DNA of 64,000 nucleotides, taken from an uncultured virus (IMG/VR IMGVR_UViG_2724679346_000005). Its lineage: Duplodnaviria > Heunggongvirae > Uroviricota > Caudoviricetes. The stretch lies in IMG/VR virus record IMGVR_UViG_2724679346_000005; one strand, written 5' to 3'. Position 1 is the stretch's first letter; each line of letters begins with the position of its first letter. A program made the translations under genes and the position numbers. The notes under the pieces are model-generated. The model saw only the letters and a program-made list of their open reading frames with translations. It did not search any database and was not told where the DNA came from. Below are positions 9,627 through 43,494 of the stretch, piece after piece.

Positions 9627-9807
9627 TGTCGGCTCTCCACTTGTCTATTTTTGCTTTGTTCTCTGCCTCGATATCAAGGTAGTCGTTCAGTAGCGCAATT
9701 CGACACAGGTCTACCGCACCGCTATCAAGGTCTTTCTGGTCGATGTGAAATACCTTTACCGGTCGCAAGATAAAATCCTCGCCACCCGGCAAGGTTTCAA
9801 GCATCAA
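9619..9807 (-). CDS. Tail assembly chaperone C-terminal (G-T-like) frame, reached by -1 frameshift
   Basis: The -1 frame from the slippery site at 9849-9861 is open into this ORF. Confidence 0.7.
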   Translation of the reverse strand: MMLETLPGGEDFILRPVKVFHIDQKDLDSGAVDLCRIALLNDYLDIEAENKAKIDKWRADNE

Positions 9808-10202
9808 TCCGCTGACAGTGCCAATGGTTCGCTCTCTTGGAGTTCGCGCAAAAAATTTCCCATCGAGTCGCCCACCACCCGACCCACGATTTGCAGCATT
9901 GCCATCAGATCAATGTCATCAAACATCACTTCGCCACCGGTAAAAATCGGGTTATAGGCGCTGCCGTTCTTACGCGACACCCTCTCTAAACAAGGGTGAA
10001 TAATGGCGTTGCAGTCCTCTTCGCTGATATCGGAAAGCGACTGGGCAATACTGGGTAACGCCGTCTCAATCGTCACCGTGCCGCTTCGCAGGTCCTTAAC
10101 GATGCCCGCGAGTAGCGGTAGTAGCTTACGTGATACCTTCAGTTGCGCGAATACGTCCAGCTTTTGAGAACGGTACTCAATACCTTTAATCGTGAATTCC
10201 AT
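9804..10202 (-). CDS. Tail assembly chaperone
   Basis: Between tail tube and tape measure; slippery GGGAAATTTTTTG near 3' end. Confidence 0.75.
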   Translation of the reverse strand: MEFTIKGIEYRSQKLDVFAQLKVSRKLLPLLAGIVKDLRSGTVTIETALPSIAQSLSDISEEDCNAIIHPCLERVSRKNGSAYNPIFTGGEVMFDDIDLMAMLQIVGRVVGDSMGNFLRELQESEPLALSAD

Positions 10203-13551: not shown

Positions 13552-13952
13552 AGCTGGCGACCACCCGCGCCGAACATCGTCACCAGTTGGTAAAATTCAG
13601 CCCCGTAGCGGGTGAAGTTCCAGAATGCTGCATCAGGGTTGAGCGTGGCGCTGTTGTCATAGCTAACGGAAACTTTATCGACACTCTTTGATGAGGCAAC
13701 ACCATTGGTGGAGCCACTACCGCCGCCCATCGCTGCTGCCTGCATATCTTTGGCCTGTAACGAGATGTAGTGAGCAACGAACAGCTCAACCAGATAGGGA
13801 AACATATTGTCTAGTAGGTTCTCATCAAGAAGGTTGTCGGCAAGTGATAATCGAAATTGTATTACCGCGTTAGGGTAACGGGCCTCATTCACAAACTGAG
13901 GGAAATCAGTCCTGAACTGTGCTGGTGTCGGTAGGTTTTTGTTCCTTGCCAT
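13548..13952 (-). CDS. Head-tail connector (DUF4054-like)
   Basis: [19 protein letters not shown] and TRYG motifs. Confidence 0.75.
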
Positions 13953-17734: not shown

Positions 17735-19055
17735 TCTCTATATCCTCATCGCTGATACTGGAGCCGATACCGATAATGCCTGCTTTGTCCCTGAGTTCAG
17801 TCATGCCACCCTGCAGCGTCAGCAAGCCTGAGTCCATTGCAGCATTAATGGTATTAACGGTTTTCTCCGCGACGTCAGCCCGATCAGGTTCCGACATCTG
17901 CCACAGCGGGTTGAAATCAAATGAGAAACCGTCTGGCAGTGGCGAACTAAACTCGGAGTAGTGGATCACTTCGAATAATCGGCGCAGTGGACGACGCAAA
18001 CGGCGCTCTTGTTGAGTTCCGATATTGTCGTAGTAGTTAGCCAGGTCAGCGTCACCGGTTGAGAACCCTGCAGGAGACTGACCAAACAAGCGCACCAGCG
18101 GGATACCAATGGCACCGGCTATCTGTTGGGCAAACTGCGCCATCACATCAGACAATCCACCGAATGCATAACTGTGCGTTTCAAACGTATCGGTGGCATC
18201 CATCAGGGTCAGGCCCTCAGTGCTTTGAAATTGCCGGATCATATCCATGCTTTTCATTAGCCCATCAAAGGCCTTGCCCCCCATCGCGACCAGCTCACGA
18301 AACTTATTGATTTTGTAGGTACGTAGATGCGCCTTAAAAATCAACTGTGCCGCACCGGTCGAGGTGCTATCAAACGCTAGCAACCGGTCAAACAGCCGCT
18401 CTATTACCGACATGCCCCATTCATTCTCTGTTCGCTTCTGCTGATACGGGAGGCCAACACCATCAAGGCGAATCACCCTGCTGTGGTGAATTTTCATGCT
18501 CGGGATACCGCCGCCGGTGGTCACCACCTGGTAATATTTAGGCATACCGAGATCTGGCCCCATCTCGGTCACTCGTTCGCTGATGGTTGGGTTAACCATC
18601 CAACGGTCGAGCACCAGTAGCCCTTTAAACGCATCTTTGCCGATGGTTTCTACCCGTAGTGGTGTTTCCGGCGCTTGGCCGTCAATCATGATGAAACCAA
18701 TTGCCCCACCGTACAGCCGTGACCATTTGATCGTGTCGTTGAGAGCATCCCAGAGGGATAACTCTTCCCAGCGCCCCTCTATTCGCATCTTGGCATCCGG
18801 TGCCATCTTGGAGGTGATGTTAATCCCCTTGCGGGTCATATCATCTGCGATGGTGTCTACCGCCGCGCCCACCAGCCAAGACGAGCGGTAAGCGTTTTCT
18901 ATCAGTTGGCGGTTGCGGGAGGTCCAATTCGGTTGGTAGCTATAATCCGCGCTTTGGTTCTCAGTTCGCAGTCCATATCGAGCAGTGAGGTTTTGATAGC
19001 TATCAGTGGTTCGTTGGGGTGATGACGCCTTGCCTACTTTACGTTTTCTCGACAT
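17583..19055 (-). CDS. Portal protein (DUF1073-like)
   Basis: IHHSRVI, IPLVRLFGQSPAG and NYYD motifs; follows terL. Confidence 0.85.
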   Translation of the reverse strand: MSRKRKVGKASSPQRTTDSYQNLTARYGLRTENQSADYSYQPNWTSRNRQLIENAYRSSWLVGAAVDTIADDMTRKGINITSKMAPDAKMRIEGRWEELSLWDALNDTIKWSRLYGGAIGFIMIDGQAPETPLRVETIGKDAFKGLLVLDRWMVNPTISERVTEMGPDLGMPKYYQVVTTGGGIPSMKIHHSRVIRLDGVGLPYQQKRTENEWGMSVIERLFDRLLAFDSTSTGAAQLIFKAHLRTYKINKFRELVAMGGKAFDGLMKSMDMIRQFQSTEGLTLMDATDTFETHSYAFGGLSDVMAQFAQQIAGAIGIPLVRLFGQSPAGFSTGDADLANYYDNIGTQQERRLRRPLRRLFEVIHYSEFSSPLPDGFSFDFNPLWQMSEPDRADVAEKTVNTINAAMDSGLLTLQGGMTELRDKAGIIGIGSSISDEDIESAKDIDPPNLGEGADLNPLEITARGNSISNAATQDSANGRRHRKWYLRWF

Positions 19056-29792: not shown

Positions 29793-30119
29793 TCAGCACC
29801 ATCCTGCGCAAATTGCTTCTTTAACGTCGTTTAATTCTAGCCACTCGCCATTTGGATCTGCGCATACTCCACAGTCAAACGAGTATCGTTCCAGCAGCAT
29901 AACATGCTTGAGTAGCTTCTCTTCTGCTGCATTATATTTCCCCTGCCACTCCAAACATTCCCGCTCGTAGTGCTTTGCTGTGCGCCGGTTCTTATTAGCT
30001 GATGCCACCAGCTCCGCTATGCGATCAGCGATGCTGTTTAGCACCTCACTTTCACGCGGTTCTACTCTTTTCGCTGCTGAACGAATTGCAGCAATCATGC
30101 CATCGGTTGAAATATTCAT
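29793..30119 (-). CDS. Phage hypothetical protein
   Basis: 108 aa with GAGG SD, coupled to neighbours. Confidence 0.6.
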   Translation of the reverse strand: MNISTDGMIAAIRSAAKRVEPRESEVLNSIADRIAELVASANKNRRTAKHYERECLEWQGKYNAAEEKLLKHVMLLERYSFDCGVCADPNGEWLELNDVKEAICAGWC

Positions 30120-30367
30120 TTGGTCTCGCCTCTGTGGTCTCTGCGGTCGCGCCAGTAATTTAAGCGCTCTTTAAAAAACTCCCGGTAATGCACCGGCACC
30201 CGTTCAATCGCTTCCAGTACGTGGGCGCGGCTGGTTCTGCGCTCGTACAGGTTTTTGATTAAGCCGCTGGCCCTCAAATCAAGATTTAGCTTTTCCTGGT
30301 ATTCCTGAGGCCAGAGGCAAATGTTGTACGGGAGTCCGGGCGGGAGATAATCCGATTGCCCGGTCAT
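30116..30367 (-). CDS. DNA polymerase III theta (HolE/HOT)-like protein
   Basis: KLNLDLRASG..EAIERVPVHYREFFKERL resembles HolE KVNVDLAAAG..EAVEREQPEHLRSWFRERL (recalled sequence, by eye). Confidence 0.55.
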   Translation of the reverse strand: MTGQSDYLPPGLPYNICLWPQEYQEKLNLDLRASGLIKNLYERRTSRAHVLEAIERVPVHYREFFKERLNYWRDRRDHRGETK

Positions 30368-30369
30368 TG

Positions 30370-30768
30370 TTAATGTGCCAAGCGTACGTTACGCAACAAT
30401 TGATCTATTATTGATATCCGTAAGCAATACACCCTTTCCTTTTCATCAAAAGGGAGCCTCGTTGATGTACGCTTAGGTGTTAAGCGCTCCGGACCTCCTT
30501 TGCAACAACGCTTATTTCTTGATTCAGAAAGCCTTATAAATTCCTCAGTAATGTTATTGAGTGTGTATGTCGTCTTGCGCCCATTACGGCGGGTTATATC
30601 AACATGAGGTGACATAACCATGCTCCGAACGCGAATTCGCAGGGTCTCAATAGGCATTTCACAATCTGGATAATTAAGGCTGATCGCTGTAGCTATCTGC
30701 CCGTAATTCATACATTTGTTTAACATTAAGCCGGCTAATTCACGGATGGTTAGTTCACGTTTTTTCAT
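30370..30768 (-). CDS. Phage hypothetical protein, possible winged HTH
   Basis: 132 aa after helicase with GAGG SD. Confidence 0.6.
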   Translation of the reverse strand: MKKRELTIRELAGLMLNKCMNYGQIATAISLNYPDCEMPIETLRIRVRSMVMSPHVDITRRNGRKTTYTLNNITEEFIRLSESRNKRCCKGGPERLTPKRTSTRLPFDEKERVYCLRISIIDQLLRNVRLAH

Positions 30769-30813
30769 GGTCTTGCCTCTTTTTGGGTTAGTTCAAGCGC
30801 TGGTCAGGCGCGA

Positions 30814-32187
30814 TTAAAATTTAGATGTTGAATAACTCTTTTCTTTGGCCGGTGGCCTTGATGCCTCTTTTGCTATTCGGCTGGCTTCCTTTGCCACCAG
30901 TTGATCCACCGGTAGAAAGTGGCCGTTTTTAAATTCCTGATAAACGGTACCAGCCTCGCCAAATCTGTTTTTAGTTACGATAGCCTCGGCAAATCTTGCA
31001 GCAGGGCTATCGGCGTTATAAACCGCCTCTCGATACAGCATGATGATGCTATCGGCGTCCTGCTCGATTGAACCGGAGTCTCTGAGATCGGAACTGATTG
31101 GCCTGCGGCTGCCCGGTGGCCGCTCATCCACTTTTCGCGATAACTGGCTAAGGGCAAAAATCGGGGTGTTTATCCGGCCAGCCAGTGTTTTTAACCCGCG
31201 TGAAATGATGCCGATCGATAGGTCATTACGCTCCGCTTTTGGCTTAGTAATCAGACCAAGATAGTCAACCATCACCATTCTCAGTTTGGGGAACCGACGT
31301 TTGTGCGTTTCCGCTATGGCCCGTATCTGATCGATGGTCAGTTCGCTGGCATCAACGATCCAAATATCACGGCCATTTAATGCCTGTAGCGCAGAGTTAA
31401 TACGCGCCCAGTCCTCATCACATAAGGTTTTAGGGTCGCGCAATTTTGACACTGGCAAATTACCGGCCCCGGCAACGGAACGCTCCACCATCTGTAGGGA
31501 TGCCATTTCCATGCTGAATATCAGCGCCCCGCCGCCGTTCTGTGTGGCCCCCTCAACAATCTTCAACGCAAACTCGGTCTTACCCATCCCCGGACGCCCG
31601 GCGATAACCACCAAGTCCTGCGGGTTAAAGCCGCCGGTTATTGCATCCAGCTCGTCAATGCCGGTGTGCAAGTTCATTGACTCAATTTCACCATTCATGC
31701 GCTTATCCAGCATGTCCATGTAGCCGGGCAACAAGTCGTTCAGATGCACAGGGATGATGCCGCCGCTATCTGCCGTCATATCAATTAGCTGTGTTACCGC
31801 GCCCTGTATCACCTGATCACGCTGTTCCTGATTGTTCGCCCCTCGGATACCGTCAGCCGCAGTCTGAAATAGCGCGGTCATGGTTCGGCTGTACCAGGTC
31901 TTACGGGCATGAGCCGCGTATCCTTTCAGGTTCGCCACGTTACCCGGCATACGGACAATTTCAGATAGCGTCGCCAGGCTACTACCGCCCAAGGCCTCAC
32001 TGACGAACAGAACATCGATCATTCCTTTGGTCAGTGCCTGCTTTTTAATTTCTGCATAGGCAGAACGATAAATCCTGATGCTAAATGCCTCTTCCGGCAG
32101 TGTGGCAATCACCTCCAGCGCATCGGGGGTTGAGCCGCCATACAGCAGGCCGGAAAGGATCGCAGCTTCTAATTCTTGAGGTTTCAT
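30814..32187 (-). CDS. DnaB-like replicative helicase
   Basis: AGRPGMGKT, SMEM, VDYL, LSQLSR and DLRDSGSIEQDAD. Confidence 0.92.
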   Translation of the reverse strand: MKPQELEAAILSGLLYGGSTPDALEVIATLPEEAFSIRIYRSAYAEIKKQALTKGMIDVLFVSEALGGSSLATLSEIVRMPGNVANLKGYAAHARKTWYSRTMTALFQTAADGIRGANNQEQRDQVIQGAVTQLIDMTADSGGIIPVHLNDLLPGYMDMLDKRMNGEIESMNLHTGIDELDAITGGFNPQDLVVIAGRPGMGKTEFALKIVEGATQNGGGALIFSMEMASLQMVERSVAGAGNLPVSKLRDPKTLCDEDWARINSALQALNGRDIWIVDASELTIDQIRAIAETHKRRFPKLRMVMVDYLGLITKPKAERNDLSIGIISRGLKTLAGRINTPIFALSQLSRKVDERPPGSRRPISSDLRDSGSIEQDADSIIMLYREAVYNADSPAARFAEAIVTKNRFGEAGTVYQEFKNGHFLPVDQLVAKEASRIAKEASRPPAKEKSYSTSKF

Positions 32188-33158
32188 AGCGCACCGTCGC
32201 GTGTTTTTCTCAACACGTCCGGTTTCATCAGATAATCAAAATTGGCGCGCCAGTGGGAACCATCATCACCACCGAAATAAAACACCGGAGCCTGTTCGCG
32301 AAACGCCTCGAAATAGCCCTGAAACGCTTCAAGGTCTTTGGTTTTGAGGTATTGGAGTAATTCGCGGATAGCGTGCTTACGGTCTTGATCGATTTCAGCC
32401 AGTGGCAAAACATCGCTGAACACACGGTTGTATGCAGCAATGACTGCATCGCAATCAATCCGCCCTGCAGACTCAGACCATGCGCGGGCATCGGCCAGAT
32501 AACCATCGAACCGATTCACGCGGCAGATATTCGCAGGCTTGGCATACTTGCCGTTACGGGGTTTCCATGTGCTGACCACCCAATGGGTCACCAACTGCAA
32601 ATCAACCAGCGCATAGGCTTTGCGCGATTTGGTTGTTGTCAGCAAGATTTCAAATGGCCCTGGGTCTTCACATCGGGTGTGAGTGAGTTGGTTGTAATAC
32701 GCCAACGCCCTTTCAGCGTCAGCGAGAATATTTTCAGTTCCCCCTTGAGGGGTAAGGGGTGTATTGGGATCTATGACTGATTCAAAAGAGTGACTGGTTC
32801 TGGGTGCAGCATTTGCACCACTAACCGGTGCACCATTTACACCAGAGGGTGCAGGAGATTCACCATAGGGTGCAGCATTTGCACCAGCGGAATTTAAGCG
32901 CAGGTGATAAACATTTGAGCGATTTAAGCCATTTTCAGATTTACGCTCTTCAATCCTAACCAGCCCATTCTTTACCAGTTTTTGGATATGATTCTGTACC
33001 GAGCGTTCGGATATTTCACACTGTTCAGCAATGTAGGGAACCGATGGCCAGCACTCGCCCTGATCGTTGGCATTGTCGGCTAATTTTATCAGTACCAATT
33101 TACGTAACGGGTTGCCGACTTTGATACTCATGGCCTTAGCCATTAGATTCATACTCAT
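32184..33158 (-). CDS. Replication initiator (O-like)
   Basis: N-terminal HTH (LADNANDQGECWPS), internal iterons, C-terminal W.A.FDYL. Confidence 0.85.
   Translation of the reverse strand: MSMNLMAKAMSIKVGNPLRKLVLIKLADNANDQGECWPSVPYIAEQCEISERSVQNHIQKLVKNGLVRIEERKSENGLNRSNVYHLRLNSAGANAAPYGESPAPSGVNGAPVSGANAAPRTSHSFESVIDPNTPLTPQGGTENILADAERALAYYNQLTHTRCEDPGPFEILLTTTKSRKAYALVDLQLVTHWVVSTWKPRNGKYAKPANICRVNRFDGYLADARAWSESAGRIDCDAVIAAYNRVFSDVLPLAEIDQDRKHAIRELLQYLKTKDLEAFQGYFEAFREQAPVFYFGGDDGSHWRANFDYLMKPDVLRKTRDGAL
32803..32885. repeat. Origin iterons inside the initiator gene
   Basis: Four 17-bp units GGTGCA-N7-CACC at 32803, 32827, 32848 and 32869; first and last identical. Confidence 0.75.
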
Positions 33159-33160
33159 AG

Positions 33161-33385
33161 TCAGATCCCCAGCGCTTCGGCTATTTGCCGACAGGCAGAC
33201 TGATAATCGTCAGCTGATAGGTTCATCAGGCGCAGGTCTGCTTTCTTCTGCTCGTACTGTTCCCACACGCTATATGCGGCCACCTGACGCCCTGCAAAAA
33301 TTAGCGCTACGTCAGCCATGCTTGCTGGTTGGCCGTTTAGCCTGAACCCATTGCACCAGGTAATTTTGTCGATAGATGTAAGCAT
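33161..33385 (-). CDS. Phage hypothetical protein
   Basis: 74 aa with GAGG SD between YdaT-like gene and initiator. Confidence 0.65.
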   Translation of the reverse strand: MLTSIDKITWCNGFRLNGQPASMADVALIFAGRQVAAYSVWEQYEQKKADLRLMNLSADDYQSACRQIAEALGI

Positions 33386-33401
33386 TGGTCTTGCCTCTGT
33401 T

Positions 33402-33866
33402 TTAGACGGTGGTCAGCCGGTGGTGTTGTGGTCTGATTGCGTGAAGTGCCGCAACAGCGCCTGATATTCTTTGTGACATGTCACAGCCATCTAATAGAAC
33501 CGCGCTAATTGCTGCGGCAAACTCTCTGCTGGCAATCGAAACCAAATAATTCACGGTCTCGCCATTCACTCTGGCCCGCCGTTCTGCCGGGAGTGCAGCT
33601 TTAAGTACCGGTGATAATTCCAAGACCTTTCGCATTGATGCTTTTGAATCCCCGCGCAGCCAGCGAAATAACTGCTGCCGGTTGTTGTTGATAGATTTCC
33701 AATCAGCGCCGCCCTGCCCGTTTTCAATGGGAGTGAGACGAACTGAACCTGTGTTGATATTGAGCAAGAAAAACATTCTGCTGATCTCGATAGCTACATG
33801 CTCCTGCCCCCGCTCTGACGCCCACGCCTGAACTTCGGCTTTAAGGGCTTTGATTTGTTGTTCCAC
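33402..33866 (-). CDS. YdaT/CII-like regulator
   Basis: NNRQQLFRWL motif; directly after cro; AGGAG SD before GTG. Confidence 0.7.
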   Translation of the reverse strand: MEQQIKALKAEVQAWASERGQEHVAIEISRMFFLLNINTGSVRLTPIENGQGGADWKSINNNRQQLFRWLRGDSKASMRKVLELSPVLKAALPAERRARVNGETVNYLVSIASREFAAAISAVLLDGCDMSQRISGAVAALHAIRPQHHRLTTV

Positions 33867-33903
33867 GTTGCGTCTCCTGTCGCCGAAAATTGATTATTGA
33901 TAA

Positions 33904-34158
33904 TCAGATTTGTGTGTGGGGTTTGGTTAGACTAATTTCAGGTTCTGGATGCGGAAATAAATCAGGTAAATCAGGGCGAACTTGATGTGCCTGTACCTCG
34001 CCATTGGTAGCTTCAACAAGGGACTTAACATTTCTCGGGGCTACTTTTGCTTTACCGCATAACCATTTTTGAACGGCCGCCTGAGTAACACCGCATGCCT
34101 CCGCTAGTCTCTTTTGAGTGCCAACAATTTGAATTGCCGTTTTAATTACATTATCCAT
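33904..34158 (-). CDS. cro: Cro/YdaS-like repressor
   Basis: HTH QKRLAEACGVTQAAVQKW and RPDLP; ATG 34158; divergent from cI. Confidence 0.85.
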   Translation of the reverse strand: MDNVIKTAIQIVGTQKRLAEACGVTQAAVQKWLCGKAKVAPRNVKSLVEATNGEVQAHQVRPDLPDLFPHPEPEISLTKPHTQI

Positions 34159-34162
34159 CTCA

Positions 34163-34258
34163 ATCACCTTTGTTGTATTTAAATGCGAATATACAACCAA
34201 AGTTGTTTTTAGGCAACAACAATAGTGATTTGACTGGGTATAACTAAGGTTGTATTTT
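34163..34258. promoter_or_regulatory. OR region: PR (minus, TTGCCT-17-TATATT), PRM (plus, TTGACT-17-TATTTT) and operators
   Basis: ACAAC-N4-GTTGT-type sites at ~34163, 34192, 34215 and 34239; the 34192 site is identical to the OL site at 36365. Confidence 0.75.
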
Positions 34259-34264
34259 GCGATG

Positions 34265-34984
34265 ATGGGAATGACACTTGCACAAAGATTAAAAGTAGCC
34301 ATGAAGGAATCTGGGCTAACTCAGGCTGCACTAGCTGAGAAGGCTGGAGTTTCACAAGCTGCTATACAAAAAATCACGTCCGGTAAAAGCCAGAGCACCA
34401 CTAAGCTACTGGAAATTTCCCGTGCGCTCCACGTCCGTCCGGAATGGCTTGGGGAGGGAGTTTTGCCTATGAAGGAATCAACTAAAACAATAAGTCACGA
34501 ATCAAGTATTCCCACAGAAAATGAATGGGGAAGTATTATCCCTTGGGATAGTAATTGCCCCATCCACGAAGACGAGGTGGAGGTGCCATTCTTACGTGAT
34601 ATTGAACTTGCTGCTGGTGATGGTAGCTTTTGTGATCAAGACTACAATGGTTTTAAACTTCGCTTTTCGAAATCTACCTTGCGGCGAGTTGGTGCTCAGC
34701 AAGAGAATGTCATTTGCTTTCCAGCCCATGGAAATAGCATGGAGCCAATTTTACCAAACGGTACGACAGTAGCTGTTGATTGTGCGAATAAAAAAATTGT
34801 CGATGGCAAAATATATGCAATCAATCAAGACGGATTAAAACGTCTTAAACTTTTATATCGCATGCCAGGAAATAAACTAAGTATTCGCAGCTTTAATAAA
34901 GCCGAGCATCCAGATGAAGATGCTGATGGAGAAACTGTAGAAATTATTGGCCGCGTGTTTTGGTGGTCAGTTCTAGATTATTGA
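34265..34984 (+). CDS. cI: CI repressor (HTH + S24 autopeptidase)
   Basis: HTH, AAG-x-G cleavage region, GNSMEP, IIGRV; start 34265 inferred from PRM spacing. Confidence 0.92.
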   Translation: MGMTLAQRLKVAMKESGLTQAALAEKAGVSQAAIQKITSGKSQSTTKLLEISRALHVRPEWLGEGVLPMKESTKTISHESSIPTENEWGSIIPWDSNCPIHEDEVEVPFLRDIELAAGDGSFCDQDYNGFKLRFSKSTLRRVGAQQENVICFPAHGNSMEPILPNGTTVAVDCANKKIVDGKIYAINQDGLKRLKLLYRMPGNKLSIRSFNKAEHPDEDADGETVEIIGRVFWWSVLDY

Positions 34985-35051
34985 TAGCTCTCACTTCTAA
35001 GTAGTCCAATGAGGGTAGGAGTATCATTCAACCTAAGAATTAAAGGAAAAT

Positions 35052-36209
35052 ATGAAGATATTCGCTGAAAAATTAAGAGCGCACTCTGATCACGTAAAAA
35101 AAGTAAGCCATCATTGTTCTACCGAAGAAACAACTAAACAGGCATTAATATTGCCAATGTTAGATATTCTTGGCTTTAACTCTTATGACCCAACAAAAGT
35201 TAAAGCAGAATATGGCGCTGATTTCCCTGGTGTTAAAGTAGGTGAGCGAGTCGACTATGCTCTATTTTGCCATGGTGTTCCTGTCATGTTTATTGAGGCC
35301 AAGGGCTATAATCAAAAACTTGATAACCATTGCCCTCAGCTTTCTAGGTATTTTAACGCGACACCTGAGGTTACTATTGCAGCCATAACCAATGGCACCC
35401 AATGGCGTTTCTTTACTGACCTTAAGCAAAGAAATATTATGGATGCCGCTCCATTCCTACAGATTGATGTAGATGAAGCATCGGACTCTGATGCTCATCA
35501 GCTATATCAATTCCGTCACGACCAGTTCCAACCGGAAGCACTTCGAACCTTAGCTGAAGAAAGCATTTATTTATCAGCATTTACTGATGTTATTAGTGAT
35601 AGCTTAAGGAATGTCGATTCTGACTTTGTCCGCTATGTTGCAAGTCGCTCTAGCGTACAACGGCAGTTGAACCAAAAGTTCCTCGATACAATTACACCAT
35701 TGGTAAAAATGGCAGTAGAGCGAGCTGTTAGTGCAATGGTTGTTTCTGGGCTATCTATGGCCTCTAACAAAGACAAAGATATTGAAGCCGCACTCGCACC
35801 TGAGCTGAAAAAAACAGATGAAACCGCACCAGTGGTCGACCCTGAAAATTCAAATATCGTTACTACACATAACGAAAGACAATTTTTTAGCAATATTCAA
35901 ATTTTACTTGGTGAACAAGCGGATATTTCAGCAAAAGACACCGCCAGTTATTACAATATTCTTTACCAAGGAAAATCAAACCGTTGGATTGTACGTTATT
36001 TTGATAGCAAACAGCGGCCGTCGATAATTTTACCAATTGAATTAGATGAAAAAGCTATCGTAGAAGTTGAGCGGGCAGGACTTGAACTAGCTCCCGGCAA
36101 TCAAATTATAATAGATCGCCCTGAGAACATTTTACGATTACCAGGGCTAATCTTGGATTCATATAATTATTGCATGGAGGATGATAATTTCAGAAACAAG
36201 AAAAAATAG
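35052..36209 (+). CDS. HsdR_N-like PD-(D/E)xK nuclease-domain protein
   Basis: EETTKQALILP, VDYAL..FIEAK, QL..YF and ITNG..WRF. Confidence 0.8.
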   Translation: MKIFAEKLRAHSDHVKKVSHHCSTEETTKQALILPMLDILGFNSYDPTKVKAEYGADFPGVKVGERVDYALFCHGVPVMFIEAKGYNQKLDNHCPQLSRYFNATPEVTIAAITNGTQWRFFTDLKQRNIMDAAPFLQIDVDEASDSDAHQLYQFRHDQFQPEALRTLAEESIYLSAFTDVISDSLRNVDSDFVRYVASRSSVQRQLNQKFLDTITPLVKMAVERAVSAMVVSGLSMASNKDKDIEAALAPELKKTDETAPVVDPENSNIVTTHNERQFFSNIQILLGEQADISAKDTASYYNILYQGKSNRWIVRYFDSKQRPSIILPIELDEKAIVEVERAGLELAPGNQIIIDRPENILRLPGLILDSYNYCMEDDNFRNKKK

Positions 36210-36364
36210 TAATCGATTTCCTGCCCCTTCTCGCTGGAGGGGCATTCCTACATCATAAACCCCCATCTAAACTCAGCCTCCATTACTTGATTAACCTCTA
36301 AAAATTCAAAAAATAACCAAATTCAAGCTAAGAAAATACAAAAAAAAACCAACACAATACAAAA

Positions 36365-36407
36365 TACAACCAAAGTTGTTGACACAAATACAACTAAAGT
36401 GTTTAAT
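36365..36407 (+). promoter_or_regulatory. PL promoter with OL operators
   Basis: TTGACA(36379)-17-TTTAAT(36402); operators TACAACCAAAGTTGT (36365) and TACAACTAAAGTGTT (36389). Confidence 0.8.
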
Positions 36408-36552
36408 TGTTTTCATCAACACGGCACAGCAGCCGATGCGAACAGGCAGGATGCCCACGAAGTAGCTGCCGGTGGCATACGAAACACCGGATGATTCGCA
36501 AGTTTAGGTTTAGTACGTTCTGGCAGCCGGGAAGACGGCACGGGGATATGTT

Positions 36553-36705
36553 ATGAAGGCAACCAAAAAGCAAGCGGGTAAATTCCAGATCCAATATCGC
36601 TACTTTGGACATTGGGCTAACGGAAATACTTACCCAACGCGCAAAGAAGCTGATGATTACGCACGTAATACTGGGCGGGATTATCAAGTAGTCAAAGTAC
36701 TGTAA
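36553..36705 (+). CDS. Small hypothetical protein, first PL gene (50 aa, not in track)
   Basis: MKATKKQAGKFQIQYRYFGHWANGNTYPTRKEADDYARNTGRDYQVVKVL; GGGGA SD. Confidence 0.55.
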   Translation: MKATKKQAGKFQIQYRYFGHWANGNTYPTRKEADDYARNTGRDYQVVKVL

Positions 36706-37017
36706 TAACAGAATTTGGGCTGTTGCACGGGAGGAGAACCCCGCGCCAAGGCTCGGCATGATTACCACTGCGCAGCAGCCCAAACCCATAACGTAGCCAC
36801 AGCGAGAAAATGTGGCGAGGCAAGACCAAAAACTGACCCGCTGGCCCGGCGTAATGGGCACCAAATTACAGATGTAAAAAAACCCACCGAAGTGGGCTTC
36901 TTTACCCCGGGTCACCGACCAAAGTTAACCGGGAAGCTAACGGGGACCAACCCGTTAACAGAGGCAAGACCAACGGCTTACGCCATCGACCTTAAAATCA
37001 GTATATCAGGAGTTGCT

Positions 37018-37353
37018 ATGACAGCACTACAGTTAACTGCCACGCTCTACATACACACCAATCCATATTCAAGAACGAAAGATGACCGCTTTATTGTCCA
37101 TGCGTGTGACATGTCACATTACTCAGAAAAGTACGTGTTACTCGAAACTCGCGAAATTACGATTACGTTTAACGAGCCCGACCCTTTTGAAATTATCAGT
37201 AAAAAGGTTGATTCACTCCGTAGTCAGAAAGAACAAATCGCGGCGGAGTCGCATCGGAGACTATCCCTTATTGATGATCAGATTCAGGCGTTGCTCTGCA
37301 TCGAGCACACCACTCCAGCGAACGTATCTGACTGTACCGAAATTCCTTTTTAA
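37018..37353 (+). CDS. Phage hypothetical protein
   Basis: AGGAG SD before ATG 37018; coiled coil ending IQALLCIEH..EIPF. Confidence 0.7.
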   Translation: MTALQLTATLYIHTNPYSRTKDDRFIVHACDMSHYSEKYVLLETREITITFNEPDPFEIISKKVDSLRSQKEQIAAESHRRLSLIDDQIQALLCIEHTTPANVSDCTEIPF

Positions 37354-37407
37354 TTAGCCATATATCAAGACCAAAAACCGTTTGAAAACCAAAGAGGCAA
37401 GACCAAC

Positions 37408-39618
37408 ATGACTGTATTTATTTGTTTATTCGAGCCGAAAAAAGCGGCTCTCAAAAATGGGGCTATACCACTGGTTATCGCGCTGGAGGCCATAAATAAG
37501 AAAATGGCATCTGCACTGGCCATTGGTAAATTGTGGGAAGCCTACCCCGCAGCCGGTGATAACTTTACTGATCCGAAAATCTGTGAGGATGCTGTCGGCC
37601 AACCGCGTGGCCGCATCGGCCAATTCGATGAGCAGTTCGCACAGGATAATACTTTTGATGGCAAAGTATGGACGCCTAATGCGGCCCCGCTGCCTAACGA
37701 GGGGGTAAGAGAGGACAATGCTACGACTCCGGTAGACTTCAACAAATTGGGTATTGGAGCCAAAGTTGGGAGCGTAATATTGTACGGTGCGCGTGACATT
37801 GATTCACATGAGCTATCACTTGTGTATGACTTAATTAATGACGACGACGCTGAACCAGAAATAAGTTCGATATACATGGCACTCACCTGTATTCCTGCAA
37901 TTGGTGCGATGTATCCGCAGTCAATTAAAAAACTTATTGATGCCATAAATAAGAAATTTCCCAAAATACCTGGGTTCAGGGATGTGCGTAACTTTGCTGA
38001 AAAATGGGTTAATGAACCCAGCAATCGTGACGAGTTAACCGGGACAAAAAAAGTTACTCATATAAATACACCTGATCTTAATTCGTCAATTAAACGTAGC
38101 TTTGAGCACACATATAAAACGCTTGATCTCGAAGTTGCTCTCGCATTGGTGCCTGCTGATTTTAACTGCTGGGAAATACACTCAGCAGAAATGAAGCAAG
38201 CAAAAGAGCTTATGGATGGTAACGACGAAGCATGGCGCAAATGGTCCACAGAATTTCGCGTTCGCAATAATGCGTTATCTATTCCACGCGAAACTATCTT
38301 TGAAGTTGTCCGTGCGGGCAAAGAGAAACCTATCTTCCTGACGGACGCCGCAGCTAGAAAAGAATTTATCTCACAGTGTCTCGCTGTCAAGGGGCCGCAA
38401 CCTGCAGTTAAAAATTTGGGTGACGGTAAGTTCTCAATTGACGGTCTAGTCGGTGGTGAACCACAACCAGCGGCAAACAGTGAAACCAAACTGGCTCTGG
38501 TTGCCAATTCTGAGCTAGAAACTGAAACAAAACCGCCAATCATTGCAACAGAACAGGAAAATCCTGCACAGGAACCTATCACTGATAATGTCGCTCAGCA
38601 GGCTAAAGAGACATTGGATCAGTTGGGCTACAGCGTTTACGCCTCAACTGATGAGAAACCAGCACAATCAGAAATAGCCGCCGAAATAACGCAGCCAACC
38701 GAAGCGGCAACAGTTGAGGTCAATACAGATACGTTCCAACAACGAGCATCCCAAATTGATAATGACATTTCGAAACTATCAAAAGCCTCTCAAGATAATT
38801 TATGTATTTGGAAATTAGTACAACGCACTGACCCGGCGAGAACAAAGCGCAAAGATACAGAAAAGAACGGCAAAATCATTCGCTCTGTGACCAGCATCAA
38901 CCCAACTTATCAAGCGATGAGAGCAACCGAAATTTTTGGGCCTTTCGGCAGTGGTTGGGGAGTGGATATTATCAGCGAAGATTTTGTACCCGGCATCCCA
39001 TTTATGGAAGCAATCCTCGACAGTAATAACCGCGAAATTGGACGTAAACCAATGCGTGACGGTGACGGAATGATCCTCCGTACATCGAACCACACCATGC
39101 GAATTGAATTGTGGTACCGCCTCGGGGAAATGCGGGGAAGGTTCACAGCATTCGGCCATACAAAACATATTTATCAAAGCACATATGGGTTTACTTGTGA
39201 TGATGAGATCAGCAAGAAAAGCCTGACCGATGCCACTACCAAGGCATTAGCACAGCTTGGTTTCAGTGCTGATGTATTCATGGGTATGTTTGATGATGCT
39301 GAATATAACGCTGATAACAGCCTCGAGTTCAGCATTATAAACGCTAGCAATAAAGCAGAGGATTCAGTCCGTTTACGCGAAGAGCTGGATGATAAATTTA
39401 AAGCCAATACCGAAACAATGCGCTCCGCTGTGACAGTAAATGAAGTCAATAAAATTTGCTCAACGTTAACTCGCGTGATGGATGCTCACATTAAAAATGC
39501 CAAGGCTATTGGTGATAAAGAATATGAGAAATATTTGACTGGCCGCTTGCGCCGGCTGAATGAAATTAAAGCTGAATGCCTGATCAAATTTGAAAATACT
39601 GCGGAGAAAACATCATGA
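37408..39618 (+). CDS. RecE-N-like region fused to a Rad52/Sak-like annealase domain
   Basis: RecE/ExoVIII-like N-terminus; C-terminal TSINPTY..ATEIFGPFGSGWG and KKSLTDATTKALAQLGFSADVFMG. Confidence 0.7.
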   Translation: MTVFICLFEPKKAALKNGAIPLVIALEAINKKMASALAIGKLWEAYPAAGDNFTDPKICEDAVGQPRGRIGQFDEQFAQDNTFDGKVWTPNAAPLPNEGVREDNATTPVDFNKLGIGAKVGSVILYGARDIDSHELSLVYDLINDDDAEPEISSIYMALTCIPAIGAMYPQSIKKLIDAINKKFPKIPGFRDVRNFAEKWVNEPSNRDELTGTKKVTHINTPDLNSSIKRSFEHTYKTLDLEVALALVPADFNCWEIHSAEMKQAKELMDGNDEAWRKWSTEFRVRNNALSIPRETIFEVVRAGKEKPIFLTDAAARKEFISQCLAVKGPQPAVKNLGDGKFSIDGLVGGEPQPAANSETKLALVANSELETETKPPIIATEQENPAQEPITDNVAQQAKETLDQLGYSVYASTDEKPAQSEIAAEITQPTEAATVEVNTDTFQQRASQIDNDISKLSKASQDNLCIWKLVQRTDPARTKRKDTEKNGKIIRSVTSINPTYQAMRATEIFGPFGSGWGVDIISEDFVPGIPFMEAILDSNNREIGRKPMRDGDGMILRTSNHTMRIELWYRLGEMRGRFTAFGHTKHIYQSTYGFTCDDEISKKSLTDATTKALAQLGFSADVFMGMFDDAEYNADNSLEFSIINASNKAEDSVRLREELDDKFKANTETMRSAVTVNEVNKICSTLTRVMDAHIKNAKAIGDKEYEKYLTGRLRRLNEIKAECLIKFENTAEKTS

Positions 39619-40181
39619 GTGTACGCACTATAGATTTAGCTTTCGACCGTAAAAAGTTTCTTGAATTTGTGGAAACATCTGACGACTTAACCCCCGAAAT
39701 GATCGCAGATACATTGGAAGCGATCGAGGGTTCGTTGGGGGATAAACTGGATTCGGCTATGGCCGCTGTTCGTCATATCGAGGGGCAGGCTGAAATTTGC
39801 GACAAAGAATCAAAGCGCCTAGCCGGGCGCAAAAAAAGCTATCAAACAAGCGCCGGGCAATTACGCGACTATATGCTTCAGTGCCTTGTCATGGCTGAAA
39901 TGAAGGGGTTAAAAACGACGCAAAACACGTTTACGGCTGTTAAAGGGCGGGAGAAGTTAGTGGTCGAAAATGTGGAATCATTACCTGATGAGTATGTCGA
40001 TGTCGCCAGCCAAATTATCTATACCCCTAAAGCTGATGAAATCAAGAGCGCCATTAAAAAGGCAATGGAAGAGGCTGAAGCCAAAGCACTTGAGGAAGGT
40101 AAAGAGATAAGCGAGGTGTTTAAAAACCCAATACCAGGTGCGCGCATTGAAATTGGACCAAGATCTTTGCAGGTTCGTTAA
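39615..40181 (+). CDS. Gp157-family protein
   Basis: IADTLEAIEG, LPDEYV, IPGARIE..SLQVR. Confidence 0.8.
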   Translation: MSVRTIDLAFDRKKFLEFVETSDDLTPEMIADTLEAIEGSLGDKLDSAMAAVRHIEGQAEICDKESKRLAGRKKSYQTSAGQLRDYMLQCLVMAEMKGLKTTQNTFTAVKGREKLVVENVESLPDEYVDVASQIIYTPKADEIKSAIKKAMEEAEAKALEEGKEISEVFKNPIPGARIEIGPRSLQVR

Positions 40182-40225
40182 TTTATTCAGCCCCGGACCA
40201 ACGGGGCATTATTGAGGCAAGACCA

Positions 40226-40396
40226 ATGCTAAGAAAGACACAAAAGCGGCACGAGCTGGCGTATATAACACTTCCAGACGGGCGAACAGGAACTATCCAC
40301 ACTGATCGCCGCTGTGATGTTAACTACGATTTTCCGGTAGATGTGCTCATTAGTAGCACACCACCGCAACCAACCGCTGAAAAGGAGATCAGGTAA
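40226..40396 (+). CDS. Small CsrA/RsmA-like protein (56 aa, not in track)
   Basis: MLRKTQKRHELAYITLPDGRTGTIHTDRRCDVNYDFPVDVLISSTPPQPTAEKEIR; ungapped identity to E. coli CsrA at M1 L2 T5 E10 I14 T21 P37 V40; GAGG SD. Confidence 0.55.
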   Translation: MLRKTQKRHELAYITLPDGRTGTIHTDRRCDVNYDFPVDVLISSTPPQPTAEKEIR

Positions 40397-40551
40397 TGAT
40401 CCGTTCTCAACTCGCCGTATTCTTTATCACAGCAGGAACAGCCTTAATTTTTATCTATGGGGCCGAGGTCAGTGCTGTAGCTGCGTTTTCATTTGGTACC
40501 GGTTTGGCTATGGGGTGTTGGAGGCGTAGGAAAGTACCAATCCAAAGTTGA
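40396..40551 (+). CDS. Small membrane protein (51 aa, not in track)
   Basis: TAATG coupling, AAGGAG SD, two hydrophobic stretches then RRRK. Confidence 0.5.
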   Translation: MIRSQLAVFFITAGTALIFIYGAEVSAVAAFSFGTGLAMGCWRRRKVPIQS

Positions 40552-40621
40552 TTTTGCTTAATCGGAAATAATCAGCCGACCCCGCTAGCATGGTGGTAAA
40601 CCAACACCAGGGGAAACCATC

Positions 40622-40828
40622 ATGCAGCCATGGCAGCCGGGCAAACGGCTATTGACCGAGTTCGACATTAAGATTGGCAAGTTATCAGCCAGCGTACGCA
40701 AACAGCAACTCACCGACCAAGATATACAGCGGGCATGTTCTGAGACCGACAGAGCAATTTACCGAATGATACAGGGGCAAGACCATGAGAAACGACCACG
40801 ACATAATCACGAAAGAGGAGATGATTGA
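40622..40828 (+). CDS. Phage hypothetical protein
   Basis: 68 aa with AGGGG SD, upstream of xis. Confidence 0.6.
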   Translation: MQPWQPGKRLLTEFDIKIGKLSASVRKQQLTDQDIQRACSETDRAIYRMIQGQDHEKRPRHNHERGDD

Positions 40829-41021
40829 GCTGACCGGTCATCACTATAAAACTAAGCAATGTGAATCTTTGCGCCGGGCAGGAATATTTTTTATTGAACG
40901 CCCGGATGGTCACCCGAAAACAACCTGGGGCCATTTTTTAAATCCCGTCAGTTTACGTGGCAAGCATGCAGAACAAGAGAAAGAAGAGCCCGATTTTGAG
41001 GCTATGAATAGTGGCAGGTAA
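40785..41021 (+). CDS. Excisionase-like protein (DUF4224-like)
   Basis: ELTG..KQCESL..GIFFIERPDGHP..EEPDFEAM; overlaps int start. Confidence 0.75.
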   Translation: MRNDHDIITKEEMIELTGHHYKTKQCESLRRAGIFFIERPDGHPKTTWGHFLNPVSLRGKHAEQEKEEPDFEAMNSGR

Positions 41022-42027
41022 ACGTAAGAACGCCGCAGACAACTGGATGCCATCTCGTGTATTCCGAGGCCCTAGCGCTTATAACTTCAAACATCCGGAC
41101 GGGCGTACGATAAGACTGTGCGCACTTGACTCTACCCAGGCGGATGTCTGGGTTAATTATGAGAAATATATTGATCAGAAAAAAGACCAGCCAACGCTAA
41201 ATTCACTTGTTGAGTCTTTTTTCAGGTCGGTTGATTTTATTGATTTGGCAACAGAGACTCAGAAGGACTATCGGAAATACGCCATGAAATTACTACCGGT
41301 TTTCGGGGTCATGCACCCCGACAATATAAAGCCAGAGCATGTCAGAAAATACATGGATAAAAGAGGGTTGAGTAGCAGGACACAAGCAAACAGGGAAAAA
41401 ACGTTTATGTCTCGCACTTACCGATGGGGATATGAACGGGGATTTGTGAAAGGTAATCCATGCAAGGGAGTTAAGCAATTTAAAGAGGAAGCGAGAGAGC
41501 GTTATATTACTGATGAAGAATATAACGCAGTGTATCAAGTCGCACCTGATGTTGTACGGGCCACGATGGAAATAGCTTATCTGTGTCTCGCCAGGCAAGC
41601 AGATGTGCTTTCATTGCGTAAAGATCAGTTCAGAGAATCGGGGATATACATCAGGCAGGGTAAAACAGGGGCAAAACAAATCAAGGCATGGTCCGAACGA
41701 TTACGTGATGCCATCGCCATGGCTGAATCACTACCGATCAAACAAGGTGTAAGTAGCGTCTACATCATCAGACAACAAAACGGCCAGCGATATACACGCG
41801 ATGGATTTAACAGTCGATGGCGCAAAGCCAGAGAGGCGGCAAAAGAGGCAAATCCAAAGTTAGATTTTAATTTCACCTTCCATGACCTTAAAGCCAAGGG
41901 TATTTCTGATCTTGAAGGGACACTCAGTGAAAAACAGGCAATTTCAGGGCATAAAAACATGGGGCAAACAGCGAGGTATGACAGAAAAATAAAAATCGTG
42001 CCAGTAGTAGGTAATCAGAAAAAGTGA
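41011..42027 (+). CDS. int: Tyrosine integrase
   Basis: ARQAD (R), QGKTG (K), FHDLKAK, SGHK and TARYDR. Confidence 0.92.
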   Translation: MAGKRKNAADNWMPSRVFRGPSAYNFKHPDGRTIRLCALDSTQADVWVNYEKYIDQKKDQPTLNSLVESFFRSVDFIDLATETQKDYRKYAMKLLPVFGVMHPDNIKPEHVRKYMDKRGLSSRTQANREKTFMSRTYRWGYERGFVKGNPCKGVKQFKEEARERYITDEEYNAVYQVAPDVVRATMEIAYLCLARQADVLSLRKDQFRESGIYIRQGKTGAKQIKAWSERLRDAIAMAESLPIKQGVSSVYIIRQQNGQRYTRDGFNSRWRKAREAAKEANPKLDFNFTFHDLKAKGISDLEGTLSEKQAISGHKNMGQTARYDRKIKIVPVVGNQKK

Positions 42028-42318: not shown

Positions 42319-43494
42319 ATGTCTGCAACCGATTACCACCACGGTGTGCGCGTCATTGAAATCAGCGAAGGCACCCGCCCGATCCGCACTGTCAGTACGG
42401 CGGTGGTCGGGATGGTCTGTACTTCCGATGATGCTGACGCCACCCTGTTTCCACTCAATACCCCGGTATTACTCACCGATGTGCTGGCCGCCAGCGGCAA
42501 AGCCGGTGAAACCGGCACATTAGCCCATTCACTGGATGCTATCAGCGACCAAACCAAACCACTGACCGTCGTTGTCCGGGTGGCGCAGGGTGAAACCGAA
42601 GCTGAAACCACGTCAAATATTATTGGCGGAATAGCACCAGATGGCCGTTATACCGGCATGAAAGCGCTGTTAGCGGCGCAGGGTAAGTTTGACGTCAAGC
42701 CCCGTATTTTAGGGGTTCCCGGTCATGACACTCTGGCGGTATCCACTGAGCTACTTTCCATCGCTCAGAGCCTACGTGCCTTTGCCTACATCAGCGCCTA
42801 CGGTTGCAAAACCAAAGAAGAGGCCATTATCTACCGCGATAACTTCAGTCAGCGCGAAGCGATGGTGATTTGGCCCGATTTCCTCAGTTGGGACACGGTC
42901 ACTAACGCCGAAACCACCGCTTACGCCACGGCTCGCGCCCTCGGCTTGCGTGCCAAAATTGATAATGATGTTGGCTGGCATAAAACGCTGTCTAACGTCG
43001 GGGTGAATGGCGTCACCGGTATCAGTGCGGATGTGTTCTGGGATCTGCAAAACAGCGCCACCGATGCCAATTTGCTTAACAGCAAAGATGTCACCACGCT
43101 GATCCGCAAAGATGGCTACCGTTTTTGGGGTTCCCGCTCCTGTTCCGATGATCCGCTGTTTGCCTTTGAGAACTACACCCGCACCGCGCAGGTACTGGCT
43201 GACACTATGGCCGAGGCCCATATGTGGGCTAACGATAAGCCGCTTACCCCGTCACTGGCAAAAGACATTATTGAGGGTATTCGCGCCAAAATGCGCGAGC
43301 TGAAATCATTGGGTTATCTGATTGATGGTGACTGCTGGTACGACGACAGCGTAAACGATAAAGACACACTAAAGGCTGGCCGCCTGTTTATTGATTACGA
43401 CTATACGCCTGTGCCGCCGCTGGAAGATTTAACCCTGCGCCAACGCATTACTGATCGTTATCTGGCTAATTTCGCCGCCGCCGTTAACAGCTAA
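42319..43494 (+). CDS. FI: P2-type tail sheath
   Basis: [26 protein letters not shown] and PVPPLE. Confidence 0.95.

Follow-up and report, generated by a model that had tools for sequence, protein, structure and literature searches.

Why should one 12-nt sequence stand directly before the start codons of six early genes of a prophage, and twice more where no gene starts? The question is raised by a 64,000-nt stretch of DNA from an uncultured virus of the Caudoviricetes (IMG/VR record IMGVR_UViG_2724679346_000005; the whole stretch is called the window here). The part concerned is the early region of a lambdoid prophage, in which the sequence GAGGCAAGACCA (the motif) is repeated. The initial annotation had proposed a translational regulon private to the phage, read by an RNA-binding dimer in the manner of CsrA. 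We consider it probable that the 12-mer is the target site of a phage-private regulon of a small RNA (sRNA) of the isrB family, which would most likely repress translation. Our confidence in this proposal is moderate, since the 5′ end of the sRNA and any effect in cells are inferred.

The motif was counted at up to one mismatch in the window, with 100 shuffled sequences as the control. Nine matches were observed, whereas the shuffles averaged 0.29 and none of them had above 2. Six of them are exact (minus strand, 30768-30779 and 33386-33397; plus strand, from 36817, 36961, 37394 and 40214). Two more, with one mismatch each, lie within the same interval of 30121-40785 (GAGGCGAGACCA at 30121-30132 on the minus strand and GGGGCAAGACCA at 40774-40785 on the plus strand). 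The ninth, also with one mismatch, is at 13693 on the plus strand, outside this interval and away from gene starts. All eight copies in the interval are on the strand of the local genes and six of them span the Shine-Dalgarno (SD) sequence and reach the start codon, so that the earlier description of six exact and two near copies on the coding strand was borne out. At these starts the motif provides a GAGG with a spacer of 8–9 nt. The six ribosome-binding sites (RBS) are given below, with the rank of each in the duplex scan described later; lengths of gene products are in amino acids (aa).

30121-30132, minus strand: RBS copy GAGGCGAGACCA before the 108-aa gene 29793-30119; the mismatch would form a G·U pair with the sRNA; duplex rank 2 of 1404
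30768-30779, minus strand: RBS copy before gene 30370-30768 (phrog_4183), with hairpin 30797-30811 upstream; duplex rank 7 of 1404
33386-33397, minus strand: RBS copy before gene 33161-33385, with the short hairpin 33407-33419 upstream; duplex rank 1 of 1404, 19 pairs
37394-37405, plus strand: RBS copy before the exonuclease gene 37408-39618; duplex rank 3 of 1404
40190-40207 and 40214-40225, plus strand: hairpin with a GACCAA loop and RBS copy before the 56-aa gene 40226-40396; duplex rank 5 of 1404
40736-40756 and 40774-40785, plus strand: hairpin with an AGACCGA loop and RBS copy GGGGCAAGACCA before the excisionase gene 40785-41021; the mismatch keeps a G·U pair with the sRNA; duplex rank 4 of 1404

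The two other copies, at 36817 and 36961, are without a start codon and lie within a non-coding leader. The true gene downstream of them starts at ATG 37018 and has its own AGGAG. A long open reading frame (ORF) that begins at a TTG and runs over both copies is spurious, because the family match and the good AGGAG-ATG begin at 37018. The features of this leader are as follows.

36877-36993, minus strand: predicted isrB-like sRNA of ∼117 nt, from an Rfam match and the fold, with the 5′ end predicted
36961-36972, plus strand: start-less copy of the motif, kept in at least 50 relatives; its complement UGGUCUUGCCUC (the anti-motif) lies inside the predicted sRNA
36945-36950, minus strand: hexaloop UUGGUC of stem-loop 1 (SL1), the complement of GACCAA
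36917-36922, minus strand: apical loop UUGGUC of stem-loop 2 (SL2), within CUUUGGUCGG, a segment conserved throughout the isrB family
36883-36896, both strands: bidirectional terminator hairpin, with a U7 tail on the minus and a CUUCUUU tail on the plus strand
37000-37008, minus strand: predicted sRNA promoter, an extended −10 (TG, one base, TATACT), just past the antisense of the RBS of gene 37018
36817-36828, plus strand: second start-less copy of the motif, in the leader of the leftward operon, upstream of the bidirectional terminator
36378-36406, plus strand: candidate early-left promoter (TTGACA, 17 nt, TTTAAT), read from the sequence

From these features the 36961-36972 copy would be the antisense of a minus-strand sRNA gene of the isrB family, the RNA being predicted, its 5′ end included. 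An Rfam scan matched isrB (RF01386) at 36877-36963 on the minus strand, at an E-value of 0.003. Matches were also obtained in five of the six relative loci tested (42.6, 38.4, 38.2, 32.4 and 32.3 bits, the last two below the cut-off), always on the strand opposite to the flanking genes. The place and orientation of the predicted gene are those of isrB: it lies antisense in a lambdoid prophage, with a small early-left gene on one side and the exonuclease region on the other.

The isrB match starts three bases inside the 36961-36972 copy, and the 5′ part of the RNA was therefore predicted from other evidence, the promoter and the covariation of the 5′ hairpin (SL0). A −10-like hexamer (five or six of six bases identical to TATAAT) is found 28–38 nt upstream of the anti-motif in all 47 distinct relatives, as against 224 of 940 shuffled sequences, and one lineage has a perfect TATAAT. 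A start ∼7 nt past this hexamer would give an RNA of ∼117 nt that carries UGGUCUUGCCUC, the exact complement of the motif.

For the structure, 14 representative RNAs, from <95% alike to very different, were folded singly. Per-sequence folds were used because MAFFT misaligned SL1, so that RNAalifold missed it. All 14 have the same four-hairpin plan, in the order SL0, anti-SD linker, SL1, SL2 and a terminator with U7; the window RNA folds at −57.4 kcal/mol (z −5.2). The UUGGUC loop is present in SL1 of all 14 representatives and in SL2 of 13. Each position of the SL1 stem shows two to four types of Watson-Crick pair, and the loop is invariant. The 3′ arm of SL0 is the UUGGUC(UU) part of the anti-motif, and an unpaired CCUC(U) comes next. 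In all 14 cases the RNA strand surpasses its complement in stability, by 4 to 23 kcal/mol, and the G·U pairs of SL0 (for example a U·G at one pair in 13 of 14) correspond to C·A mismatches on the other strand. These two observations support the minus strand and also the 5′ extension as part of the RNA. UUGGUC is complementary to GACCAA, which forms the loops before 40226 and in the leader, and which is also found at the 3′ end of the motif if an A follows.

Further evidence that the motif is read by this RNA comes from co-variation. We searched IMG/VR with a pattern made of SL2 and the terminator, the motif being excluded, and obtained 70 non-redundant isrB-like loci after removal of overlaps. 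The canonical anti-motif is present in 42 of them, and those longer than 8 kb carry 2–8 canonical copies of the motif. Twenty-four loci, of the Salmonella/HK225 type, have neither the anti-motif nor a single copy. In the remaining four the RNA reads UGGUCUUUCCUC, with one G changed to U, and all of their 4–6 sites read GAGGAAAGACCA, with no canonical site left. The RNA and all its sites have switched together in this lineage, as is expected of the seed and the targets of a base-pairing sRNA regulon.

The flanks of the sites follow the RNA as well. C at −1 is found at 6 of 8 sites in the variant lineage, where the RNA continues with G; the other two lineages have it at 4 of 54 and 1 of 32 sites. 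C at −2 occurs at 14 of 32 sites in the lineage whose RNA carries G there and at 2 of 54 in the one whose RNA carries U, and between the same two canonical lineages A at −3 differs likewise (30 of 32 versus 14 of 54). In loci chosen by the RNA pattern alone, motif and start codon are directly adjacent at 58 of 80 sites if CAU precedes the anti-motif in the RNA, and at 7 of 29 if CGU does. Among single-mismatch RBS variants, 14 of 22 replace A by G or C by U and so preserve pairing with the RNA through a wobble; the expectation is 22% with even substitution and 33% with a two-fold transition bias. Both one-mismatch variants of the window are wobble-compatible.

The motif is private to the prophages, in agreement with the initial annotation. 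The 15-mer of motif and ATG occurs in multiple copies in prophages of Rouxiella silvae, a Providencia genome and Yersinia artesiana, and also in Xenorhabdus and many IMG/VR prophage contigs. We scanned three whole genomes of relatives' hosts (4.3–5.3 Mb) and found all 4, 6 and 7 exact copies within one 6–16 kb prophage early stretch on one contig; the reversed pattern did not occur. The motif is thus not a habit of host ribosome sites. The 84 loci with at least three copies gave 128 distinct contexts, in which the flanks are often unalignable and the 12-mer is exact. The initial sRNA pattern missed 10 of these 84 multi-copy loci; six of them have CCUU for CCUC together with another terminator, and for the other four only the replication arm is covered. 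As judged from these matches, the motif and its predicted sRNA are widespread, in dozens of Yersinia, Rouxiella, Providencia and Xenorhabdus prophages. Among isolated phages no near match to the window was found; a distant search returned 5% cover in Pectobacterium phage ZF40 and one shared 60-nt piece.

Complementarity to gene starts was scored by a duplex scan of RNA nucleotides 19–39 against positions −25 to +6 of 1404 candidate starts (ORFs of at least 50 codons); a version with 60 nt of RNA was too noisy. The six window sites took ranks 1, 2, 3, 4, 5 and 7, with predicted energies of −25.4 to −34.4 kcal/mol compared to a median of −10.2 and duplexes of 12–19 nt. This is complementarity beyond chance between a seed and a set of starts, as a trans-acting base-pairing sRNA would have. 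Rank 6 is an internal-looking site in the late region, GGGGCAAGGCC at 18257-18290 (minus strand), which has two A-to-G differences from the motif and lies 16 nt before an in-frame ATG; it is probably a chance match.

The genes that carry the motif recur across the family. They are the exonuclease, the 74-aa phrog_2465 gene after cII, the 56-aa gene, a 103-aa gene, the phrog_4183 gene after the helicase, a 112-aa gene and two kinds of excisionase. The genes for Cro, CII, the initiator, the helicase and the integrase, and the late genes, are untagged. The earlier suggestion that the motif marks a co-regulated set of early genes is supported.

The initial annotation had also named four GACCA hairpins upstream of motif copies and had suggested recognition at two places, the loop and the SD. 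All four hairpins are present: 40190-40207 (6 pairs, loop GACCAA), 36938-36957 in the leader (7 pairs, loop GACCAA), 30797-30811 (4 pairs, loop CTGACCA) and 33407-33419, which has only 3 pairs. A fifth, at 40736-40756 before xis, has 7 pairs and the loop AGACCGA. Across relatives, 38 of 145 motif sites have a GACC-containing hairpin loop no more than 50 nt upstream, compared to 28 of 992 ordinary SD-ATG sites of the same loci. Recognition at two places is supported. We also considered N/nut-type antitermination for these hairpins, whose loop and stem resemble boxB elements, and set it aside; there are at least five of them per phage, directly before ribosome sites and in both operons. What stands of the earlier dimer regulon is its private, two-site character; the CsrA-like protein dimer is not supported, the complementary and co-varying factor being the isrB-family sRNA, although a protein partner is conceivable.

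We envisage the following mechanism. Transcription of the minus strand, starting near 36993 and ending at 36877, would yield the sRNA and would run opposite to the early-left leader. UGGUCUUGCCUC would pair with GAGGCAAGACCA over the SD, and in many relatives also over the AUG, of six early genes, namely those for the exonuclease, the excisionase and the 56-aa product, with three small ones from the replication arm. The UUGGUC loops would kiss the GACCA(A) loops upstream of some sites, or the GACCAA within the site; kissing loops together with SD pairing would produce the two-site layout of the initial annotation. At the sites the motif is free of local structure and the spacing from SD to start is good. 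Their default state thus looks open, and pairing should block the ribosome.

In the lysogen, leaky messages for the exonuclease, the excisionase and the replication accessories would be kept silent by the sRNA. The predicted sRNA promoter faces the candidate early-left promoter, and strong early-left transcription would interfere with sRNA synthesis. A transcript from 36378-36406 would include the full antisense of the sRNA and the 36817 copy, and upon induction this complement and decoy could outrun and titrate the sRNA. The arrangement would amount to a threshold device, in which the block holds in the lysogen and collapses on induction. The sRNA would probably switch the six tagged early genes together. 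We infer pairing in cells and repression as the direction of the effect; the effect may also be activation, or a change of termination at the bidirectional terminator 36883-36896.

The 36817 copy is conserved in relatives, sometimes with one mismatch, and is often preceded by GACCAAAG. It lies ∼55 nt upstream of the bidirectional terminator and could be an sRNA decoy or a part of termination control. In the Providencia-type leader (L034, 6013-6027, and relatives) the start-less copy is followed by a four-codon mini-ORF (ATG, three codons, stop), which overlaps the 5′ hairpin of the sRNA on the other strand; Yersinia-type phages have ACG there.

Several observations weigh against the sRNA as the reader. 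The isrB score of the window, 35.0 bits, is exactly at the gathering score of 35. At the Providencia locus no isrB match was obtained at E 0.1, despite the shared four-hairpin architecture. As the Rfam model starts just inside the anti-motif, the 5′ extension depends on the promoter prediction and the SL0 covariation. A generic promoter scan of 36200-37500 returned no promoter, neither that of the sRNA nor the early-left candidate, and the latter is accordingly offered as a candidate. A search of sequencing runs gave only small shares, and RNA contigs from relatives, from four runs, carry no strand or end information and are uninformative on sRNA expression. In the predicted fold of the window RNA, SL0 sequesters most of the anti-motif (UGGUCUUG), and CCUC(U) alone is free. 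Only about a quarter of the motif sites in relatives have the upstream hairpin. The wobble-compatible variants fall to ∼10 of 18 when gene families are counted once, and the wobble, flank and spacing statistics overstate independence because orthologous sites are included. Finally, a protein whose specificity has changed, or else gene conversion, could be the source of the co-variation of all copies as well.

The first of these two sources leads to the alternative that survives best, which we nevertheless regard as unlikely. A phage RNA-binding protein would read GACCA at the SD and in the upstream loop, and the sRNA would be a sponge or a bystander. Changed specificity of such a protein would account for the variant lineage as well. 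The candidates are the 56-aa product of 40226-40396, which the initial annotation had named, and the 74-aa phrog_2465 protein. They are present in 26 and 35, respectively, of 36 motif-bearing loci and in none of 16 others, a further point against the sRNA; but motif-bearing phages form one clade, so that motif-specific proteins are expected among them, and neither protein is found in all motif-bearing loci. A structural model of the 56-aa protein has five short strands (pLDDT 79), and its look-alikes in the atlas include a cluster with 59% CsrA members (score 0.80) and an AbrB/MazE-like cluster (0.87). By the tool's own note, however, one in three shuffled proteins attains 0.80. Fold matches of the monomer model have a best Z of 3.9, with an RsmA/CsrA-family chain at rank 40 (Z 2.5).

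Sequence comparisons do not place the 56-aa protein in the CsrA/RsmA family. It belongs to no Pfam or NCBIfam family, its family profile retrieved no CsrA among solved structures, and hhalign against the host CsrA gave a probability of 0.2%. The CsrA model of Pfam (PF02599) did not match the 56-aa ORF in three genomes at E up to 1. The gene is moreover itself a motif-bearing gene. In favour of a protein reader, a weak match to rsmX, of the CsrA-sponge clan, was obtained in the sRNA region (23.6 bits, E 0.63). Against it, the exact 12-nt RNA complement would be left as a coincidence. As a separate observation, a Providencia prophage contig has a csrA-like gene with two stop codons (G004:C11:15013-15158), ∼40 kb from the early region.

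Quite improbable, in our estimate, is a role of the 12-mer as a linker or boundary for module exchange between phages, kept uniform by recombination and with no regulatory reader. Boundary sequences in lambdoid phages are a published idea, and the phage has its own recombination genes. A given downstream gene is often preceded by sequences that bear no relation to one another, the homology breaking off at the motif; when the first 30 nt of the gene are the same, the upstream 30 nt are unrelated in 104 of 248 motif pairs versus 92 of 374 control pairs. These pairs are not independent, though, and the excess is only 1.7-fold. Twelve bases are very short for homologous exchange, and a linker leaves unexplained the conserved loops on unrelated stems, the wobble bias, the start-less copy in the RNA gene and the absence of the motif from late genes. 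The junctions may be a by-product of the regulon. That the motif is just an optimal RBS or an enhancer that pairs with extra bases of 16S rRNA, copied among genes without a trans factor, is very unlikely in spite of its GAGG and 8–9-nt spacer: the 16S rRNA of a close relative's host complements at most 6 nt of the motif, and ∼10% of random 12-mers find 8 nt, no host gene in the three genomes uses the motif, two copies have no start codon, and a plain RBS does not explain the concerted one-base switch of the variant lineage.

The repressing isrB-family sRNA, reading the motif at six starts, is thus the explanation that we carry forward. An extension of it is conceivable, although we doubt it. 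The tag might be an RNA-based immunity code, by which the sRNA of a resident prophage would silence the early genes of incoming relatives with the same tag; the lineage with the one-base variant would then be a heteroimmune escape group. By analogy, the same logic could explain the start-associated sequences of mycobacteriophages too.

The surrounding early region of the prophage is arranged as follows.

34250-34984, plus strand: cI-like repressor
33904-34302, minus strand: cro/YdaS-like gene, rightward arm
33402-33866, minus strand: cII/YdaT-like gene, rightward arm
33161-33385, minus strand: 74-aa gene (phrog_2465), rightward arm
32184-33158, minus strand: O-like initiator, rightward arm
30814-32187, minus strand: DnaB-like helicase, rightward arm, followed by small genes and a large cytosine methylase
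Leftward arm, plus strand, in order: HSDR_N endonuclease, the promoter-like site near 36378-36406, a 50-aa ORF, gene 37018-37353
Leftward arm, plus strand, continued: exonuclease 37408-39618, a gp157/Gam-like gene, small ORFs, excisionase 40785-41021, integrase 41011-42027

A few further observations were made in this region and in the relatives. A homologue of the DNA polymerase III theta subunit is encoded at 30116-30367 (Pfam 36.4 bits, PHROG 1105); of 36 motif-bearing relatives, 25 have it too. Only 5 of 36 relatives share the small first ORF, 36553-36705. The gene for a tail sheath of the myovirus type (42319-43494 and on) begins 290 nt past the integrase gene, so that a second phage-like tail cluster abuts the prophage end. 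Just downstream of the early-left promoter candidate is a 60-nt non-coding piece (36438-36499), which is 84–94% identical in ST64B, SfV, SfII, mEp460, phiNP, YeP1-3 and Pantoea AH07 and is unannotated there; the phages that share it are lambdoid and otherwise unrelated. It is the sole part covered by several RNA contigs. An Rfam search of this piece gave no match, and its fold is unremarkable (z −0.2). In one motif-bearing lineage a tRNA-like sequence lies between the divergent early operons, near the sRNA gene (L189, ∼9735-9810).

If the proposal is true, it would provide the first function and the first target set for the orphan IsrB family. A temperate phage would tag chosen early genes (recombination, excision, replication accessories) and hold all of them with one RNA, which would add to the repressor a post-transcriptional level of control over the lysis-lysogeny switch. 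The natural compensatory variant makes the system directly testable. The proposal would also offer a concrete hypothesis for the mycobacteriophage start-associated sequences.

In a literature search that left out subscription journals and supplements, we found no target set for IsrB; the search, outside subscription journals, likewise yielded no relevant paper containing the 12-mer and none joining Yersinia, prophage and isrB. No target or function of IsrB is given in the parts of PMC2330248 and PMC5391140 that were covered, and IsrB is absent from the part covered of a 2025 review of phage small RNAs (PMC12197685). In the sections available, IsrB is described as a mapped RNA of 88 and 94 nt from the Gifsy-1 and Gifsy-2 prophages of Salmonella, seen on Northern blots, oriented against its neighbours and next to the exonuclease gene sbcA (PMC2330248). 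It is also listed among the ProQ-associated prophage RNAs, with a role in maintenance of lysogeny termed only "likely" in that section (PMC5391140).

The closest system by descent is IsrB, and the closest in kind are the c4 RNA of P1/P7 and the start-associated sequences of the Cluster K mycobacteriophages. With Salmonella IsrB the predicted sRNA shares covariance-model homology, the antisense site by the exonuclease gene in the early-left operon, the SL2 segment and the terminator. The Salmonella/HK225 type differs from it in having no 5′ extension with the anti-motif, and no dispersed motifs occur in its 24 loci.

CsrA with its CsrB/RsmX-type sponges is similar in the recognition of a loop and the SD and in an RNA with repeated loop motifs. 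The present system uses GACCA/UGGUC rather than GGA, its RNA directly complements the mRNA, and the sequence searches for a CsrA-like protein were negative. The c4 RNA, according to the portion of the review consulted, is a structured phage RNA whose loops pair with repeated mRNA sites, one of them over an RBS, and small sequence differences between P1 and P7 set the specificity of immunity (PMC12197685). c4 acts on one operon (ant), whereas here at least six separate genes in two divergent operons would be addressed, and the two RNAs are unrelated in sequence.

The Cluster K start-associated sequences, as described in the parts of PMC3203893 covered, are 12–13-nt asymmetric motifs that contain the SD and occur in many copies in one orientation a few bases from the ATG. 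They precede non-structural genes only and do not occur in the host, and about half of the copies follow an inverted repeat (PMC3203893). The motif described here is likewise an SD-containing repeat at the starts of non-structural genes, absent from host genes. This is a likeness of kind only, since sequence, host and phage lineage are unrelated. The upstream repeats differ also, the ESAS repeats of Cluster K being conserved 17-mers, as far as these sections describe them, whereas in the present hairpins conservation is confined to the loops and the stems vary. In the sections covered, the Cluster K authors leave it open whether the reader is RNA or protein (PMC3203893, PMC12699233), and by these accounts it has been unknown since 2011; in the present prophages a complementary RNA gene is identified.

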